Assembly: GCA_963663765.2 (NCBI GenBank)
Contig: CAXXUA010000008.1
Span: 52,320-116,319 of the forward strand
Length of the DNA stretch: 64,000 nt
Direction of reading: 5' to 3'
Source: Candidatus Poribacteria bacterium
Lineage (GTDB): Bacteria > Poribacteria > WGA-4E > WGA-3G
Every line of letters starts with the position of its first letter. Position 1 is the stretch's first letter. This document shows, piece after piece, positions 128 through 22,955 of the stretch. Below the pieces are notes generated by a model. The model saw only the letters and a program-made list of their open reading frames with translations, did no database searches and was not told the DNA's origin. Position numbers and translations under genes: made by a program.

Positions 128-640
128 TCAGATTAAATCAAAATCATTTTTGGGAACATCCATTGCCTCTAAGCACTCAAGTACCTCTGTCTGATCAACC
201 AAATCAAACTGATGCGTCCCTATATACATATACCGAATTGTCCCAAATTTGTCTATGATAAAGGTTGCAGGTCTTGCTATGTTGTAAGCCTCAAAACTGA
301 GCCAGTGATATACACCATAACTCTTGATGACACTTCTATCTTTGTCTACCAAAAGTGGAAAAGTGATACCGTTTCGTTCAGCAAACCCACGCAGTTCTCG
401 AGGCCATTGTCCAGCAATACCAATCGGAGTTCCATGATACTTGGCAAAATCATCAGAGTGAGCTTGCACTGCAGCCAACTGGCGGCGACTATTCGGTCAC
501 CATGTTCCCCTAAAAAAGGTCAAAACTACGTGCTGTTCATCACGAAAATTCTCCAACGACACAACCTGACGTCGATGTGACGGAAGTGAAAATTCCGGTG
601 CTATATCACCTATGTTGAGTATTTTGTTCTGACGTGGCAT
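128..640 (-). CDS. AhpC/TSA (peroxiredoxin-like) protein with in-frame UGA, probable selenocysteine at codon 48; 170 aa
   Basis: The frame of the 128..478 ORF continues upstream through a TGA at 499..497 to ATG 640: MPRQNKILNIGDIAPEFSLPSHRRQVVSLENFRDEQHVVLTFFRGTW(U)PNSRRQLAAVQ...FPLLVD...RPATFIIDKFGTIRY. The TGA sits where the peroxidatic Cys of FxRGxWCPxC falls. Confidence 0.88.
466..496 (-). promoter_or_regulatory. Candidate bacterial SECIS hairpin after the UGA of the peroxiredoxin-like gene
   Basis: mRNA reads UGA CCGAAUAGU CGCCGCC AGUU GGCUGC: a GC stem with one mismatch. The loop starts 17 nt after UGA with G in its second position. Confidence 0.55.
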
Positions 641-3799: not shown

Positions 3800-4912
3800 A
3801 TGTTTCAAAAAATAATTGAGATTCTCACCTTAATCGCTTCAACCATCGTGCAGTGTATCTTCTATAAGAGAGGGTTACCCAAGGAATTCACCCCTAAACG
3901 TATCCTCGTTGTAAAACTTGACCACATTGGAGATGTACTGCTATCAACACCAGTTTTTTCCAATTTACACCACGCATATCCAAACGCTGAACTCCACGCG
4001 CTAACAGGTAGATGGAGCCGTGTTATACTTGAAAACCACCCCAATGTAAATAAGGTATGGGTATACAATTCCCCAGCATTTTCACGTTCTGAAAAACCAA
4101 CAAGTCTAAAGGAAGTCTTACAGTTGTATCGAAACTTAAAAGGTCAAAATTACGACCTATTGATAAATCTACGTGGGGATTGGCGAATTGTCCTGTTTTC
4201 AATCTTTCGCGTCAGTTCAAACCGCATCGACCGTCCATCCTTACAAGTAGCAAATAAAGTTGGAATCACTCAGTTTAGCTGTAGACATGAAACAATCCGT
4301 AATCTTGATGTTCTGAAACAAGTGAGGATACCAACAACCATTCAACATGCAACTTTTTTTGTTACTCCTGAAAATGAGGAATGGGCATCCAAATTCCTGT
4401 TAGATCAGAATATCCAGTTAGATCAACCGATTATCGCATTACATCCCGGTTCTCCGATTACACTGAAGAGATGGATACCAAAGCGTTTTGCTGAATTAGC
4501 TGACTACTTGATTGCAGAAAAAAATGCAATAATTCTGTTTGTCGGCGTGAAAGACGAAATACCGATAATTACTGAAATACAAAACATCATGCATGGAGAA
4601 TCAATCAGTATCGCTGGCAAAACAAATTTAACGCAATTGGCATCAATATTGCTCAGATGTACTATGTTTATAGGTAATGACAGCGGACCGATGCATCTTG
4701 CTGCATCGGTTGGAACAAATACAATCGGATTATTCGGACCAGGAGACCCAGAAAGGTTTGGACCGATCGGGCACAATTGTGCAACTATTCGGAAAAAACT
4801 TGACTGTCCCCCATGCACAGGACAAGTTTGCAGATTCGGTGAACAAGGATGTATGTCAACTATACAGGTAACTGATGTGATCCAGACACTTGAAGCACAT
4901 AAATTTCTATAA
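3800..4912 (+). CDS. Glycosyltransferase family 9 (LPS heptosyltransferase-like)
   Basis: Motifs RILVVKLDHIGDVLL, ALHPGS, KRW, GNDSGPMHLAA and LFGP. Confidence 0.9.
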   Translation: MFQKIIEILTLIASTIVQCIFYKRGLPKEFTPKRILVVKLDHIGDVLLSTPVFSNLHHAYPNAELHALTGRWSRVILENHPNVNKVWVYNSPAFSRSEKPTSLKEVLQLYRNLKGQNYDLLINLRGDWRIVLFSIFRVSSNRIDRPSLQVANKVGITQFSCRHETIRNLDVLKQVRIPTTIQHATFFVTPENEEWASKFLLDQNIQLDQPIIALHPGSPITLKRWIPKRFAELADYLIAEKNAIILFVGVKDEIPIITEIQNIMHGESISIAGKTNLTQLASILLRCTMFIGNDSGPMHLAASVGTNTIGLFGPGDPERFGPIGHNCATIRKKLDCPPCTGQVCRFGEQGCMSTIQVTDVIQTLEAHKFL

Positions 4913-5168
4913 ATAGAATGAATTAATGTTAGGCAGTTATCTCTATTTATCCAAATTTCTTCTTAAATGCTTAATCTGTATTAGAATTTTCATAAGAATT
5001 AACTTGACTTTTTTTGGCACAAAAGATAATATGTTCTTTAAGACATACTTTAGTTTTTTTAGAAGGTTACTTACATATTCCTAACTTTATTTTTTCAGAA
5101 CATTGATTGATATAACATTTTGAATATTTACATCTGTATTTCAAAATAGATTTATGGAGGATTAGAAA

Positions 5169-16275: not shown

Positions 16276-19200
16276 ATGGAAGCAAGGGTTAAACGTTTTA
16301 TTATCACAATAGGAATATTAGCAATAATCGGTGGTACATTCGCCGCTTGGGTCAAAATATATCCAGATTTCCTCTGGTTTGGGATGGTGGAATATCTGAA
16401 CATTTACACCAAAATCCTAACTACAAAAGTCGTTATAGGGTTAGTCGTTGGAGTCGCATATCTTGCAATCCTCTTAGTAAATCTATTCATCATATATAAA
16501 CTTACACCTGCGCAGCTTAGTCCTGCCTTTATGGGAGGCACAGAATTTACGGGTGGAGAAACAAACACACGAAAAATGATTTACGGAGGACTCACAATCC
16601 TCGCAGTTTTATTCAGTATCTTGATGGGGTATTCTGCAACTGACCGTTGGGAAGTCTTTTTACGCTATACACACGCTGAAGACCTCAACTTCCAATCCGC
16701 CACTCCTATTGAAGTTCAAGAGAATTTGAATTCAAACGAGATACCTGTTTCAACATTAGAACTTGAAGCAAAAAAGGTACAGGTTGGAGACGAAGTCAAC
16801 GTACACATTGAAGAGAATGATCCCATTGTAGCTCAAGTTGAAGCAGTGATTACAGAAGAAATAAAACAGGGTGATAAACAGATCACCGTTCCAATTGGAT
16901 TACGATTAAACCAAGATATACAGATAGAAAGCGGACAAAAGGCATATTTTAAATCCCTTGCACGAGACCCAATATTTGAAAAAAACGTTTCTTACTTTGT
17001 CTTCAAAATGCCTATGGAAAGATATATCATAGGTACATTATTCGGCATTTTTCTATTAGTCACATTTTTTGCTGTCGTCATCTACTTTTTCCACGGATTG
17101 ATTACAGGTGAATCAAATCAGTTAAAATTCCGACCACCTTTTGGTGTGAAAGCACATCTTTTTACGCTTGTTGGATTAACACTGTTATTCCGTGCTTTGA
17201 ACTACCGCTTTGCTATGTTTGACCTATTGTATGCCTCAAACGATCTTGTTCGCGGTGGTGGTGGATATGCAGAAATGAACGCAAGACTACCTGTTCTATG
17301 GATCATGTCGGTTATCACTGTTCTTTGCGTAGCCGTGTTTATCACGAATATCTTCATACGAAAGAATGTTTATGCTTTTTCTGGTTTCGCAATTTTTATT
17401 GTCGCGGGTCTAATTGGACAACTTTATCCAAAACTTATTCAAACATATCGAGTTGAACCCAACAAACAGGTTTTAGAACAGCAGTATATCAACTACAACA
17501 TCAAATCAACATTGCATGCTTATGACTTAGAAACCAACACAGTAACTGAACAAGAATATCCGATTAAAGATGAACTCACCTATGATGAAATAACAAGTCC
17601 AGAAAATGAAGCTGTAATTAATAGCATTCGACTCTGGGATTGGCGTCCATTACGTAAAACTTTTCAGCAACTTCAAGAAATTCGCTCACAATACGATTTT
17701 CTTGATGTAGATATTGACAGATACATCGTTAATGACGAACTCCAACAAGTGATGCTTTCAGCACGCGAACTCAACATAAACGAACTTCCTGATGCTAAGA
17801 ATGATTGGTTCCAACAGACGTATGTTTATACACATGGATACGGTGCTGTCGTCAGTCCAGTCACAAAAATTTATGATGGCAGCCCAAGCATGTATATAAA
17901 AGACTTACCACCAGAAATCAAATACGATGACCAATGGACTCATAGATTTGATGATGAGCCAGGACCACGGATCTATTATGGTGAAGGTACAGACCGGTAT
18001 GTAATTGTAGATCCTAAACTTTCTATAGATACCGAAAAGCTTGAATTTGACTATCCCATAGAGGGACAACAGTTCGCTGTCAATGCTTACCAAGGCAAAG
18101 GCGGTGTTGTACTTTCTTCGTTCTGGCGCAAACTTGCATACATGTTCAAGTTTAACAACGAAATCAAATTTATCCTTCCTGGAGAAATTGAATCTACAAG
18201 TAAAGTACTATATGACAGGAATATCATAAAGCGCGTACAAAAAATTGCTCCATTTCTCCGATATGATGGTGACCCTTACGCTGTCATACATGATGGAAGA
18301 CTGGTTTGGATGATTGATGCATATACGACCACTCATCGCTATCCATACTCTCCAATAGAGAAATTCGGTCAACGCGATAGAGGTCCATGGGGAAACTACA
18401 TTCGTAATTCTGTAAAGGTCGTTATTGATGCATACCATGGTAATGTTGATTTCTACCTGATTGAACAGGAACACGACCCTATCGCTGAATGCTATCGCAA
18501 AATTTTCCCTGATCTATTTAAAACGTTCAACGAGATGCCTGCAGATTTACAAGCACATATCCGATATCCAACAACACTGTTCCGCATCCAATCACGGGTT
18601 TATCAAGATTACCACATGAAGGATCCTATTACTTTTTACGCCAGTGAAGACCAGTGGGAAATAGGAACAGAATTGTATGACAATACCAATAAGCAGACCA
18701 CACAGGTGACAGTACCTCAGCAAACAAGTCCTTTTGCACCTCAAAGAGTTGTTGAAAAAAGTCAAAAGCGAAATATACAACAAGTAGATCCATACTATGT
18801 TATTCTCAAACTTCCAGGTGAAGAAAAAGCAGAATTTATGTTGATGTTACCATTTACCCCTCGTAACAAACTGAATCTGATCGCATGGCTCGGAGCTCGA
18901 TGTGATTTACCTCAATATGGACAACTGCTTGTCTACAGATTTCCTAAGCAAGAACAAATTCCTGGACCGATGCACGTTGAGAATTTTATTAGTCAGGACC
19001 CGGATATTTCAAGAGATATCAGTTTATGGAATCAGGAAGGTTCACGGGTACTTCGTGGTAACCTTTTGATTTTACCGATGAATAACTCACTCCTTTATGT
19101 AGAACCAATTTATATTCAATCTGAAGATGCTGATTCGGCAATTCCTGAATTGCGTCGGGTAGTTGTTGGATACAGAGAGACAGATAAAGAAAGCCCTTAT

Positions 19201-19479
19201 ATTGTCTGGGGTGAAACACTTGATGATGCTCTCAGAGAAATGTTTATAACAAGGTTAGGCGGACAAACTGGTCCCACAAATGTAACAGAGGGGACTCCTG
19301 ACACAACCGAAATCCCTGAAACCGCTACATCAACATTTGACGAGTTAATTAAACAAGCGAACACTTACTTTAATAACACGCAAACTGCACGGCGTAACGG
19401 TAATTGGGCGGAATTTGGAAACAACCTAAATCTGTTAGAGAATGTTTTGAAACAAATGGAACAAAATATTCAGGAGTAA
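16276..19479 (+). CDS. UPF0182 family membrane protein
   Basis: Motifs LWF, DPIF, IRLWD, YTHGYG, PRIYYGE, WMIDAYTT, NYIRNSVK and LLYVEPIY. Confidence 0.95.
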   Translation: MEARVKRFIITIGILAIIGGTFAAWVKIYPDFLWFGMVEYLNIYTKILTTKVVIGLVVGVAYLAILLVNLFIIYKLTPAQLSPAFMGGTEFTGGETNTRKMIYGGLTILAVLFSILMGYSATDRWEVFLRYTHAEDLNFQSATPIEVQENLNSNEIPVSTLELEAKKVQVGDEVNVHIEENDPIVAQVEAVITEEIKQGDKQITVPIGLRLNQDIQIESGQKAYFKSLARDPIFEKNVSYFVFKMPMERYIIGTLFGIFLLVTFFAVVIYFFHGLITGESNQLKFRPPFGVKAHLFTLVGLTLLFRALNYRFAMFDLLYASNDLVRGGGGYAEMNARLPVLWIMSVITVLCVAVFITNIFIRKNVYAFSGFAIFIVAGLIGQLYPKLIQTYRVEPNKQVLEQQYINYNIKSTLHAYDLETNTVTEQEYPIKDELTYDEITSPENEAVINSIRLWDWRPLRKTFQQLQEIRSQYDFLDVDIDRYIVNDELQQVMLSARELNINELPDAKNDWFQQTYVYTHGYGAVVSPVTKIYDGSPSMYIKDLPPEIKYDDQWTHRFDDEPGPRIYYGEGTDRYVIVDPKLSIDTEKLEFDYPIEGQQFAVNAYQGKGGVVLSSFWRKLAYMFKFNNEIKFILPGEIESTSKVLYDRNIIKRVQKIAPFLRYDGDPYAVIHDGRLVWMIDAYTTTHRYPYSPIEKFGQRDRGPWGNYIRNSVKVVIDAYHGNVDFYLIEQEHDPIAECYRKIFPDLFKTFNEMPADLQAHIRYPTTLFRIQSRVYQDYHMKDPITFYASEDQWEIGTELYDNTNKQTTQVTVPQQTSPFAPQRVVEKSQKRNIQQVDPYYVILKLPGEEKAEFMLMLPFTPRNKLNLIAWLGARCDLPQYGQLLVYRFPKQEQIPGPMHVENFISQDPDISRDISLWNQEGSRVLRGNLLILPMNNSLLYVEPIYIQSEDADSAIPELRRVVVGYRETDKESPYIVWGETLDDALREMFITRLGGQTGPTNVTEGTPDTTEIPETATSTFDELIKQANTYFNNTQTARRNGNWAEFGNNLNLLENVLKQMEQNIQE

Positions 19480-19520
19480 TTGAATTTATTTCTTATACAA
19501 TAAATAAGGAGGTGAAACAC

Positions 19521-19766
19521 ATGTCTCTCGATTGGAAACCACGACACAGGGATATGATTATTGGTGGTATTCCGTGGCTTGCACGAATCTCTGACAAAGC
19601 CAGCGCGAAACTACAAGGTATCATCGGTGAATACATATATCCGTGACCACAAGACAAAATGTTCCTGGAGGAACATAAAATATCTGCTGACGAATTCGTT
19701 GACATGGTGAAAAACAATCCATCAGATGATGAGATGATTGCTGCCATGAAGGAATTAAATAGCTAA
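19521..19766 (+). CDS. Small DUF5069-like protein with in-frame UGA, probable selenocysteine at codon 42; 81 aa
   Basis: RBS AAGGAGG. MSLDWKPRHRDMIIGGIPWLARISDKASAKLQGIIGEYIYP(U)PQDKMFLEEHKISADEFVDMVKNNPSDDEMIAAMKELNS*. The TGA at 19644..19646 falls at the Cys of the family motif GEY.YPCP.D..FL. Confidence 0.82.
19659..19676 (+). promoter_or_regulatory. Candidate bacterial SECIS hairpin
   Basis: Perfect 7-bp stem ATGTTCC-TGGA-GGAACAT starting 13 nt after the UGA, with G at loop position 2. Confidence 0.68.
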
Positions 19767-19829
19767 ATATTGTTCATAAGACAGGCGTGCTCGGGAAAGC
19801 GCGCCAATTTCACACCGGAGATTGTTTGC

Positions 19830-20894
19830 GTGAACTTGAAAAAACTGCGAGATCAAATTAATAAACTTGATGACCAACTTCTTGAAATCCTTCAAAAACG
19901 AGCTGAGATTTCGGGGAAAGTAGGTTCCTTAAAAGCAGACATGGGGTCTGTTATTCATGATCCACAGAGAGAATACGAGATTCTTAAACGTCTAAAAAAC
20001 CTGAATCACAGTATTTATCCTGAACATTCTATTGAAATAATATGGAATGAGATTTTCTCGGCATCACGTGCTGTACAAACACCAATACGTGTAGCTTTCC
20101 TCGGACCTTTAGGGAGTTTCGGACACACCGCTTGTGAGGCATTTTTCGGTCCATCATCAGACATGATTCCAATCACTCCCCAGGTTGATATCTTTACCGA
20201 AGTAGAAACAAATCGCGCGGATTTTGGTATGGTAGCAATCCAAAACTCAGTATACGGTACTGTCCGAGATGTGTTAGAGCGATTCCAACATACACATTTA
20301 AAAATCTGTGCTGAAATGTATCAACCGATCAAGCACCACCTGATTTCAAAGTCGCAACTTCAAGATATAGAACGCATTTACTCACATAGTCAACCTTTCG
20401 CTCAATGTCGTATGTGGTTGAATAATTTTATGAAACATGTTGAGCAGGTTGAAGTTGTCAGCACATCGGACGCAGCACAACGCGCTGCTGAAGAACCTAA
20501 CACCGCAGCCATCGCAAGCAAACTTGCAAGTAAGATATACGAAGTGCCTGTAATCGCCGATTCAATAATGGATGACCCAAATAACACAACACGTTTTCTT
20601 ATAATTGGAGACCAGATAGTAGGCATGAGTGGCAATGACTGCACTTCCATCTTTTTCTCTGTAAAAAACAAAGTTGGTGCATTATATGAAATCTTGGGAG
20701 TCCTTGAAAAATACCAACTGAACCTTAGTTATTTGGAATCACTCCCTTCACGCAGCAAACAGTGGGAATACATCTTCTTCGCAGATATTGATGGACATGT
20801 TGAGGATGAAAAAGTTCATACTGTACTTGACGACCTTGAGAACCTCTGCAGAGAGGTAAGAATCCTCGGTTCATATCCTCGGGGTGAAAAATAA
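19830..20894 (+). CDS. pheA: Chorismate mutase/prephenate dehydratase
   Basis: CM domain LRDQINKLD, FLGP, SHSQPFAQC, NTTRFL and an ACT domain with ESLPS. GTG start at 19830 with GGAG RBS. Confidence 0.93.
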   Translation: MNLKKLRDQINKLDDQLLEILQKRAEISGKVGSLKADMGSVIHDPQREYEILKRLKNLNHSIYPEHSIEIIWNEIFSASRAVQTPIRVAFLGPLGSFGHTACEAFFGPSSDMIPITPQVDIFTEVETNRADFGMVAIQNSVYGTVRDVLERFQHTHLKICAEMYQPIKHHLISKSQLQDIERIYSHSQPFAQCRMWLNNFMKHVEQVEVVSTSDAAQRAAEEPNTAAIASKLASKIYEVPVIADSIMDDPNNTTRFLIIGDQIVGMSGNDCTSIFFSVKNKVGALYEILGVLEKYQLNLSYLESLPSRSKQWEYIFFADIDGHVEDEKVHTVLDDLENLCREVRILGSYPRGEK

Positions 20895-20961: not shown

Positions 20962-22113
20962 ATGGCAATTACATTGACCCAACAGATCCAAGAACGTGCC
21001 CATGAACTCGGATTTGAACTTGTCGGTATAACCCCTGTCCAAGAGAGCCAAACCATCCAACGATACAAACAATGGATTGACAATGGGTATGCCGGTGAAA
21101 TGGGATACCTTGAAAGACACTTACCTCTAAAGGAAGACCCACGAAAACTACTCCAAGAAGCAAAATCCGTTATCTGCCTCGCTATGAACTATTATACGCT
21201 TGACACACCAACGGAAATTGCACAGGATCCCAGCAGAGGACAAATCTCTCGATACGCATGGGGGGATGACTATCACGATGTCATACGTGCACGCTTGTTA
21301 CACTTTGTCGAGTATATAAAAAGCAAAGCAGAAACCGAACTCAAAAGTCGGGTTTTTGTGGATTCCGGTCCTATCATAGAAAGGGAATATGCACAAAAAG
21401 CAAAACTCGGTTGGATAGGAAAAAACACTAATCTAATCAACTGGCGTACAGGTTCATGGTACTTTCTTGCAGAGGTACTTGTTAGTATTGACTTGGAATA
21501 TGATTTACCACCACTGATAGGAAGTTGCGGCAGCTGCACAAAGTGCATTGAGGAATGTCCAACAGACGCAATTATTGAACCAAATCTACTTGATTCAAGG
21601 TTATGCATCTCATATCTGACGATTGAATTGAGGGACAGTATTCCAAAGGAACTCCGACCCAAGATGGGTAATCTGATTTTTGGCTGCGACATCTGCCAAG
21701 AGGTCTGCCCATGGAACAGCAAAGCAACGCCAACAACAGAACTCGCGTTTAGACCCCGAAAGGGCAATCTTGCACCTGAGCTGCTATCACTCATCGGAAT
21801 GACACAAGCCGAGTTCAGCAAGAGGTTCAAGGGAAGTCCAATCAAACGCACAAAACGTAGGGGGTTTCTACGAAATGTCATCGTAGCAATCGGTAACTGG
21901 AAATCACGAACTGCTATTCCCGCACTCAGTAACGCAATGACTGATGATGAACCGCTAATACGAGGGCATGCAGCATGGGCATTAGGACAAATCGGTGGGG
22001 ATGATGCTAAACAGGTATTGAATACCCGTTTGGAGACTGAAAATGATAATGATGTCATTACTGAAATAGAGGATGCACTACAAGTTATAGCAGGTAATGG
22101 GAATTTACTATAG
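20962..22113 (+). CDS. queG: Epoxyqueuosine reductase
   Basis: ISRYAWGDDYH, GWIGKN, CGSCTKCIEECP, CISYLTIE, GCDICQEVCPWN and a HEAT tail. Confidence 0.95.
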   Translation: MAITLTQQIQERAHELGFELVGITPVQESQTIQRYKQWIDNGYAGEMGYLERHLPLKEDPRKLLQEAKSVICLAMNYYTLDTPTEIAQDPSRGQISRYAWGDDYHDVIRARLLHFVEYIKSKAETELKSRVFVDSGPIIEREYAQKAKLGWIGKNTNLINWRTGSWYFLAEVLVSIDLEYDLPPLIGSCGSCTKCIEECPTDAIIEPNLLDSRLCISYLTIELRDSIPKELRPKMGNLIFGCDICQEVCPWNSKATPTTELAFRPRKGNLAPELLSLIGMTQAEFSKRFKGSPIKRTKRRGFLRNVIVAIGNWKSRTAIPALSNAMTDDEPLIRGHAAWALGQIGGDDAKQVLNTRLETENDNDVITEIEDALQVIAGNGNLL

Positions 22114-22130: not shown

Positions 22131-22955
22131 CTACTCCCACCGTGCCCATACATTTGGAGTAATGTAACCTTCATCCTTGTATGGATCATCACCTGAAACA
22201 ACCACAACCCCACGATAGTTCCGTTGTCCTTTCCATCCAAGCCACGATGCTGTTGAACAATAGTGACTCACGAGAACGCGTCGATAGGAATTGCTTCTAT
22301 TCTTTTTTGACCGATGTAATAGGTAACCGTTGAAAAAGAGGACGCTACCCGTTGTCATTTCAATTGGAACTTCTGTGGAATCGTCAAAACCACGTGCCTC
22401 ATAGCAGCTGTCAAACTCATCTTGCTTGTTGTGCGGGTGACGATCATAGATTACGCCAGATCTATGGCTATTGGGCAGCACCCAGATGCATCCATTGTTA
22501 ACTGTCGCGTCATCCAAAGGAATCCAAGCCCCAACAAGTGATCTGTCACGCGTCGGTATCGGATGTTCGTCTTGGTGCCATGGATTTCCGGTATGTCCCG
22601 GTACTTTCCCCAACATCATTGACTGCATACACTTAACACCCCCATTCCAAAATGGTATGTGTGCACCGACGATTTCTCGTAGGATCGCACATATTTTAGG
22701 ATGTTCAACATAACGACGCACAATCGGACTGAATGTATGGGGTTCACCAACACACATTATTCGGTCTAAGACTTCAATTTCAGTTGCATCCTCTGACATC
22801 GCTGGAATTGCGTCACATTCATATTTACCTCGAAAAATTTTTACCATTTCTAATTTCAGTTCATCACATTCCTGAGGCGTAATGACATCTGGAACTAACA
22901 GGTATCCATCGTTGATATATGATTTTGCCCAACGGTTTGAAACCTGATGTGACAT
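22131..22955 (-). CDS. Phytanoyl-CoA dioxygenase (PhyH) family protein
   Basis: Motifs WHQD, AWIPLDDA..NGC, PNSH and LLHRS. Confidence 0.9.
   Translation of the reverse strand: MSHQVSNRWAKSYINDGYLLVPDVITPQECDELKLEMVKIFRGKYECDAIPAMSEDATEIEVLDRIMCVGEPHTFSPIVRRYVEHPKICAILREIVGAHIPFWNGGVKCMQSMMLGKVPGHTGNPWHQDEHPIPTRDRSLVGAWIPLDDATVNNGCIWVLPNSHRSGVIYDRHPHNKQDEFDSCYEARGFDDSTEVPIEMTTGSVLFFNGYLLHRSKKNRSNSYRRVLVSHYCSTASWLGWKGQRNYRGVVVVSGDDPYKDEGYITPNVWARWE

Follow-up and report, generated by a model that had tools for sequence, protein, structure and literature searches.

Most characterised prokaryotic selenoproteins have a thioredoxin-like fold, as stated in a recent survey (PMC13188914, 2026), and the selenoprotein families listed to date mostly carry UxxC or CxxU motifs. 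The gene described here, which lies in a stretch of 64,000 nucleotides from a metagenome-assembled genome of sponge-symbiont Candidatus Poribacteria (hereafter the window), departs from this pattern, in that its predicted product carries the motif YP-U-P with no partner cysteine and has a helical fold for which no thioredoxin-like match was seen. The protein is a short form of DUF5069 (PF16798), and the selenocysteine (Sec) that it is predicted to contain takes the place of the Cys that is present in PDB 3OMD and in most DUF5069 members. In other respects the gene resembles the SelD and peroxiredoxin-like genes of the SelB/SECIS system in its own genome, which likewise have an in-frame UGA opposite Cys and a hairpin within the coding region with a small G-containing loop about 19–21 nt away.

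Among described selenoproteins, Hypothetical protein GOS_A (Zhang and Gladyshev, 2008; PMC2398784) is of particular relevance; that paper describes it as marine, lacking a recognised domain and represented by two sequences with Sec and 155 homologues with Cys. Compared by description only, this profile would fit DUF5069, and the second Sec lineage considered below is also marine in apparent origin; GOS_A does not appear among the 119 families of the 2026 table. OS_HP1 and OS_HP2 from the Olavius study were considered too and set aside as unlikely to be DUF5069 proteins, having only 0–2 Cys homologues. The supposition that this family is missing from the standard selenoprotein lists has held up, as PF16798 does not occur in Table 1 of the 2026 survey (119 prokaryotic families, compared with the protein through their Pfam, TIGRFAM or NCBIfam identifiers), and the accessible parts of the deep-Sep and BSepDB papers name no DUF5069 family. 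We found no mention of DUF5069 or PF16798 in the openly searchable literature, in which the combination of Poribacteria with selenoprotein or selenocysteine yielded only a 2026 paper on a [NiFeSe] hydrogenase and two incidental mentions. The genes described here are thus probably the first recognised Sec-containing members of DUF5069, and probably a Sec family that has not been listed, which would add to the catalogue of prokaryotic selenoproteins a helical family without a thioredoxin-like match.

Gene layout, DUF5069 membership and conservation of the UGA

A preliminary description of the locus had reported a ribosome-binding site, an ATG, an in-frame TGA and a continuation of 39 codons to a TAA, and each of these was recovered at its reported position by direct examination of the sequence (ATG 19521–19523, TAA 19764–19766; other features are collected in Table 1). 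Translated with TGA as U, the gene encodes 81 residues, of which U is the 42nd, and 39 sense codons follow the TGA; the protein has no Cys, and U42, within YPUPQD, is its sole Cys or Sec residue. Taking together the evidence set out below, we consider it very probable that 19521–19766 is a single selenoprotein gene that encodes an 81-residue short-form DUF5069 protein and in which the UGA is decoded as Sec.

Table 1. Positions of the predicted selenoprotein gene, its RNA elements and its neighbours in the window
Feature	Position	Strand	Basis
Upstream neighbour, UPF0182 family membrane protein	16276..19479	+	Pfam PF03699, E 5.4e-239
Shine-Dalgarno-like AAGGAGG	19506..19512	+	8 nt 5' of ATG; seen directly in sequence
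Predicted DUF5069 short-form selenoprotein gene, 81 codons plus TAA, Sec as residue 42	19521..19766	+	Translation; Pfam PF16798
UGA, predicted Sec42, motif YIYP-U-PQD	19644..19646	+	TGA conservation; homologues with Cys or Cys codons
Tentative lower stem, 5' half	19649..19651	+	Pairs with 19685–19687; 80% of cells
Putative SECIS hairpin, stem ATGTTCC/GGAACAT, apical loop UGGA	19659..19676	+	Synonymous constraint; pairing; bSECIS criteria
Tentative lower stem, 3' half	19685..19687	+	Pairs with 19649–19651; weak
Downstream neighbour, pheA (chorismate mutase / prephenate dehydratase / ACT)	19830..20894	+	Pfam matches

The sole Pfam family matched by the read-through protein is DUF5069 (E 6.7e-14; 52.6 bits against a cut-off of 27), and the match, to positions 4–75 of the 133 in the profile (i.e. 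a short form), runs from residue 7 across the stop to residue 78, so that the homology sought 3' of the UGA is present. No NCBIfam model was matched at E up to 1. A single related structure has been solved, PDB 3OMD, which is an uncharacterised protein from Leptospirillum rubarum; it aligns with residues 12–75 (E 1.1e-10), and its residue opposite the UGA is Cys. The window protein shares the motifs WLxRxxDKxR and GEYxYPCPxD with DUF5069 and 3OMD, and P7, R8, R22, D25, K26, D45 and D69 are nearly invariant. A natural Cys homologue (P0013), when used as the query in a cluster search, returned DUF5069 clusters only, with every score below 0.9.

In an alignment of 179 DUF5069 domains drawn from 165 stored family proteins, the site is occupied by C in 119 (one of these being the placeholder in the query), S in 21 and W in 11, with 13 domains ending exactly at residue 41, 5 without coverage and 10 others. 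Cys is therefore the commonest residue at the Sec site across the wider family (118 other domains), and this alignment and that with 3OMD bear out both the family motif and the pairing of Cys with UGA that had been proposed. The further proposal that this is the single conserved Cys of the family stands in that the UGA pairs with Cys in orthologues, but Cys is not universal, as a Ser-type subfamily exists, and the Sec/Cys site thus need not be redox-active across the whole family. Two paralogues in the same genome belong to this Ser-type subfamily, with the motif YGxxSGxD and no Cys: a protein of 429 residues with three tandem domains (C5:490647-491936, + strand) and a single-domain protein of 145 residues (C5:615821-616258, - strand).

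The UGA is strongly conserved in related genomes, as had been anticipated. TGA is present at this codon in all 80 related genome loci (79 parsed by script and one, L009, inspected by eye) and in all 81 distinct gene sequences; these loci are close kin and do not count as independent cases. When 176 Poribacteria genomes were scanned, 169 gave matches, and exactly one TGA was present in 150 of 150 among the matches listed (E up to 2.7e-36), with 152 more matches in existence. Ten lower-scoring Poribacteria genomes were also inspected, and TGA was present in three (families f4 and f7), with TGC or TGT at the Sec position in the other seven, all of family f8; the f8 orthologues are of the YPCPADKAFL type and are single ORFs, providing the Cys/UGA pairing that the preliminary description had proposed to test. 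The pheA gene lies directly downstream at nine of these ten distant loci, including all seven with Cys forms, and the tenth locus is cut. SelA was found in all five f8 genomes tested, and the Cys form in this family does not therefore derive from loss of the Sec trait.

The database gene calls examined for this gene are either cut at the UGA or show W in its place, much as had been predicted of gene callers in general. The translations with Trp at the Sec codon (P0002–P0011 and P0020) are ENA calls on contigs of 530–1237 bases and were apparently made under a code with TGA as W; protein databases consequently hold 'YPWP' versions of a selenoprotein, and both types of call would mislead alignments of the DUF5069 family. 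Contigs from RNA libraries (four runs from two studies) span the gene across the UGA, covering 19506–19777, 19510–19839, 19551–19875 and 19602–19811, with no differing letters at the UGA codon, such contigs alone being no proof of transcription. No RNA-library contig covered the UPF0182 and pheA flanks, which says nothing about operon structure.

The hairpin 3' of the UGA

As published (PMC13188914), the bSECIS model has limits of 3–9 nt for the loop, 4–16 bp for the stem, 16–37 nt for the spacing between UGA and loop and at most -7.5 kcal/mol for the minimum free energy (MFE), and requires a G in the apical loop. The perfect hairpin ATGTTCC-TGGA-GGAACAT that had been reported to start 13 nt after the UGA is indeed present, its parts lying at 19659–19665, 19666–19669 and 19670–19676 respectively, with 12 bases between the TGA and the first base of the stem and a conserved core, GTTCC/GGAAC, in which 19661–19665 pairs with 19670–19674. 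The loop is 4 nt long with G at position 2, the stem is 5–7 bp and the loop lies 19 nt from the UGA; the MFE comes to -8.3 kcal/mol when a weak lower stem is included and to -6.9 kcal/mol for the upper hairpin alone, so that loop, stem, spacing and, in the former case, MFE all fall within the published limits. Folding energy of the single sequence was dropped as a line of evidence because it is not significant (60 nt, -10 kcal/mol, z -1.16; 29 of 200 shuffled sequences fold as well).

The bases of the stem also encode the conserved residues F-L-E-E, so part of their conservation is at the protein level and the case for an RNA element is drawn from synonymous sites only. Codons 48–51 are nearly fixed in the 81 sequences (TTC in 81, CTG in 80, GAG in 81 and GAA in 80), and codon use for the same amino acids is free elsewhere in the gene: Phe59 is TTC in 34 sequences and TTT in 47, Leu31 uses all six codons, and Glu37 is GAA in 46 and GAG in 32. 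Diversity at the third position is 0.082 for codons 47–52 and 0.409 for the other codons downstream of the UGA in the same 81 sequences, and the two codon exceptions, C to T in L020 and A to G in L038, both keep G-U pairs. In 30 diverse sequences pairing was retained in 92.9% of cells; the five core pairs are never broken, being either invariant or G-U, and the two outer pairs are broken in 3 and 12 of the 30 sequences. Change on both sides is confined to two of the seven pairs, both of them outer and poorly conserved, and the near-invariance of the stem leaves little true covariation.

The hairpin also follows the identity of the codon. Of the sites in the window and in the genome and metagenome loci, 128 could be classified, three loci being without the motif used by the script, and an in-register stem of at least 5 bp is present at 102 of the 104 TGA sites as against 1 of the 24 Cys sites. 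One of the two exceptional TGA sites is cut by a contig end, and in the other (L131) a 7-bp stem of different sequence carries the loop UGGAU in the same position; among the Cys forms, L129 has a 7-bp in-register stem and L126 a 7-bp stem with a 5-nt loop. As the loci are close kin, effectively of three lineages, these counts do not represent independent events. As judged from these comparative patterns, the hairpin is a SECIS-like element under selection.

The register of the tentative lower stem differs in the second lineage, which is represented by marine metagenomes. The synonymous site of Ala56 (19686–19688) is frozen, with GCT in 80 of 81 sequences and other Ala codons varying freely, and this site varies in the second lineage; the lower stem may relate to the frozen GCT of Ala56.

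Selenocysteine machinery and the reading of the UGA

The genes that would be needed for Sec insertion, which the preliminary description had named as a check, are all four present in the genome from which the window comes: selA, the SelB wing domain with an adjoining tRNA-Sec (anticodon tca) and selD, which itself has an in-frame TGA in the motif CAGU. Counting SelD, the genome has 11 other TGA-containing matches to known selenoprotein families (SelD, SelW-like and nine of AhpC-TSA type), in most of which a hairpin of 6–7 bp, its 3-nt loop containing G, follows the UGA at about 21 nt, and this Poribacteria genome looks rich in selenoproteins. Poribacteria in turn appear to be selenoprotein-rich, which bears on selenium and redox biology within sponges. 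The SelD match (C2:220603-221529, - strand) and the SelW-like (Rdx) match (C5:1158529-1158747, - strand) have one in-frame TGA each, as do 9 of the 24 AhpC-TSA matches in the genome. The window holds a second selenoprotein gene at about 128–640 (- strand), similar to AhpC-TSA proteins and peroxiredoxins and of about 170 residues, with its Sec codon near 497–499 in FFRGTW-U-PNSR.

The decoding mechanism that we propose is the ordinary bacterial one, in which SelB and tRNA-Sec from the same genome would insert selenocysteine at the UGA (19644–19646), directed there by a coding-region SECIS hairpin (19659–19676, loop UGGA) that also encodes (M)FLEEH. The product would be a small helical domain of the 3OMD type whose single Sec closes the loop that leads into helix 2; the surrounding motif is YP-U-P-x-D, no second Cys is present, and Sec42 would work with an external partner instead of an internal resolving Cys. 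The insertion of selenium itself is inferred.

Three other readings of the UGA need to be weighed. That it is a true stop, giving a peptide of 41 residues followed by either a decaying remnant or a separate 35-residue ORF starting at ATG 19659, is very improbable. Gene callers do give exactly such fragments (P0014–P0017 end in YIYP and P0018 starts with MFLEE) and the ATG is present in the window, but codon 47 is ATG in only 62 of the 81 sequences and there is thus no conserved internal start. Diversity at codon positions 1, 2 and 3 in the 81 distinct sequences is 0.099, 0.053 and 0.357 downstream of the UGA and 0.092, 0.037 and 0.380 upstream of it, so that the same pattern of purifying selection is seen on either side, and the other two frames downstream contain stops in all 81; by these comparisons the codons 3' of the UGA evolve like coding sequence and are translated. 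Also contrary to a true stop, the Pfam and 3OMD alignments continue uninterrupted across it, the Cys orthologues are single ORFs, and AlphaFold predicts the read-through protein with high confidence (pLDDT 91), as a structure that fits onto 3OMD with an rmsd of 1.3 Å over 79 residues. A sequencing or assembly error, or a reassigned code in which TGA specifies Trp or Gly, is less probable still and is already effectively refuted. W appears at the site in ten ENA gene calls, as calling under table 4 would give, but these stem from the short contigs mentioned above, and of the 3063 long frames in the genome 603 end in TGA (6 of 34 in the window), which indicates a standard code and agrees with the earlier observation that TGA is a normal stop elsewhere; as to error, well over 100 independent assemblies, closed chromosomes among them, share the TGA, as do the RNA-library contigs.

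Hairpins 3' of stop codons can stimulate read-through in other systems, and by analogy the UGA could be read through without Sec, either by a near-cognate tRNA that inserts Trp or Cys or by programmed read-through that the hairpin stimulates. The comparative data report on downstream translation and not on the inserted residue; we regard this reading as very unlikely, though slightly less so than the other two. It is opposed by the residue that aligns with the UGA in orthologues and in the family, which is Cys, the standard counterpart of Sec; by the full Sec machinery and the many UGA genes of known selenoprotein families with the same hairpin geometry; by the G in the loop, which the bSECIS model requires; and by the codon itself, which is always TGA and never TAG or TAA at the 104 non-Cys sites.

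Structure, related lineages and gene neighbourhood

The AlphaFold model of the read-through protein, made with an alignment of 77 sequences, has four helices (20–32, 43–51, 56–65 and 69–80) and a short hairpin, and helix 2 being 43–51, it places Sec42 immediately before that helix. The model matches 3OMD with a TM score of 0.84 and an rmsd of 1.1 Å in Foldseek and with a Z score of 12.8 in VIA-align. Beyond 3OMD, the fold searches gave nothing past a Foldseek E of 2.7 or a VIA Z of 3.4; no chain with a thioredoxin fold exceeded Z 3.4 and a DsbA row had E 2.7, an absent match of this kind not excluding a thioredoxin fold. The literature matches listed for 3OMD use the term as an unrelated abbreviation.

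Reactive Cys residues at the N-termini of helices are common in thiol enzymes. The position of Sec42 at such a site and the very use of Sec are suggestive of a centre that is nucleophilic or redox-active, and an external partner would be needed as there is no second Cys, the 81-residue protein having no CxxC, UxxC or CxxU motif. That Sec42 acts as a redox-active or nucleophilic centre is plausible, albeit a little short of probable. The use of Sec would single out the sole conserved Cys of DUF5069 as critical to function and offer a first experimental handle on a family for which a structure (3OMD) has been solved. Domain fusions were considered as a guide to function and rejected, since the 23 longer DUF5069 members have no consistent partner (methyltransferase, DUF2249, cupin in three proteins, AI-2E transporter, DLH and a fragment of an amino-acid kinase).

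A second Sec lineage was reached from database proteins that are cut at the same place and have a different N-terminus, one of which (P0020) was used as a query and gave 40 metagenome loci. About 15 of the 40 form one group with the motif YP-U-G/P-ADKKFLEELG and the identical GTTCC-TGGA-GGAAC hairpin, and this lineage apparently comes from marine samples; in L113, its sole Cys member, the 3' arm of the hairpin has been lost. In a tree of 63 rows, for which the Sec/Cys site was masked and every fifth of the 80 genome loci was kept, the Poribacteria Sec forms, the f8 Cys forms and the second lineage form a clade with 100/99 support. At least three Sec/Cys changes are needed on this tree, the root and hence the direction of change not being fixed. 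L131, the lone Sec form of a third lineage, stands among the Cys forms L125–L129 and L134 and beside L128 (98/87 support); its stem sequence differs and its UGGAU loop is at the same distance from the UGA, which suggests a separate Sec/Cys switch.

A broader proposal, which we put forward tentatively and consider rather less likely than a catalytic role for Sec42, is that the short DUF5069 forms are an unpublished selenoprotein family with a helical, non-thioredoxin fold, in which the single Sec or Cys would be the nucleophile of an undescribed reaction and the Sec form, with its frozen SECIS, would be ancestral. This same proposal has the site at the N-terminus of helix 2, with Ser in the sister subfamily, and the SECIS as GUUCC-UGGA-GGAAC; the Sec form would be ancestral to most sponge-associated Poribacteria and the planktonic marine lineage and would have been kept throughout the radiation.

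The order of genes in Poribacteria is UPF0182, the selenoprotein gene, pheA and queG. The reported location between UPF0182 and pheA agrees with the Pfam matches of both neighbours and with the related loci, in which UPF0182 is upstream in 80 of 80 and pheA downstream in 77 of 80. This conserved place directly upstream of pheA across the class could reflect a functional link with the synthesis of aromatic amino acids. The gene of the second lineage neighbours an operon for an ABC peptide transporter and an HDOD-domain response regulator instead of pheA, and function was not assigned from gene neighbourhood, as no theme is common to Poribacteria and this lineage. The gene for the response regulator with the HDOD domain is one ORF of 418–427 residues in L111 and L103, and is split in L105 into two ORFs at 4059–4439 and 4620–5165 (- strand). 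In the window, queG (epoxyqueuosine reductase with a C-terminal HEAT repeat; 20962–22113, + strand), which follows pheA in 72 of the 80 related loci, is convergent with a gene for a PhyH-family dioxygenase at 22131–22955 (- strand).
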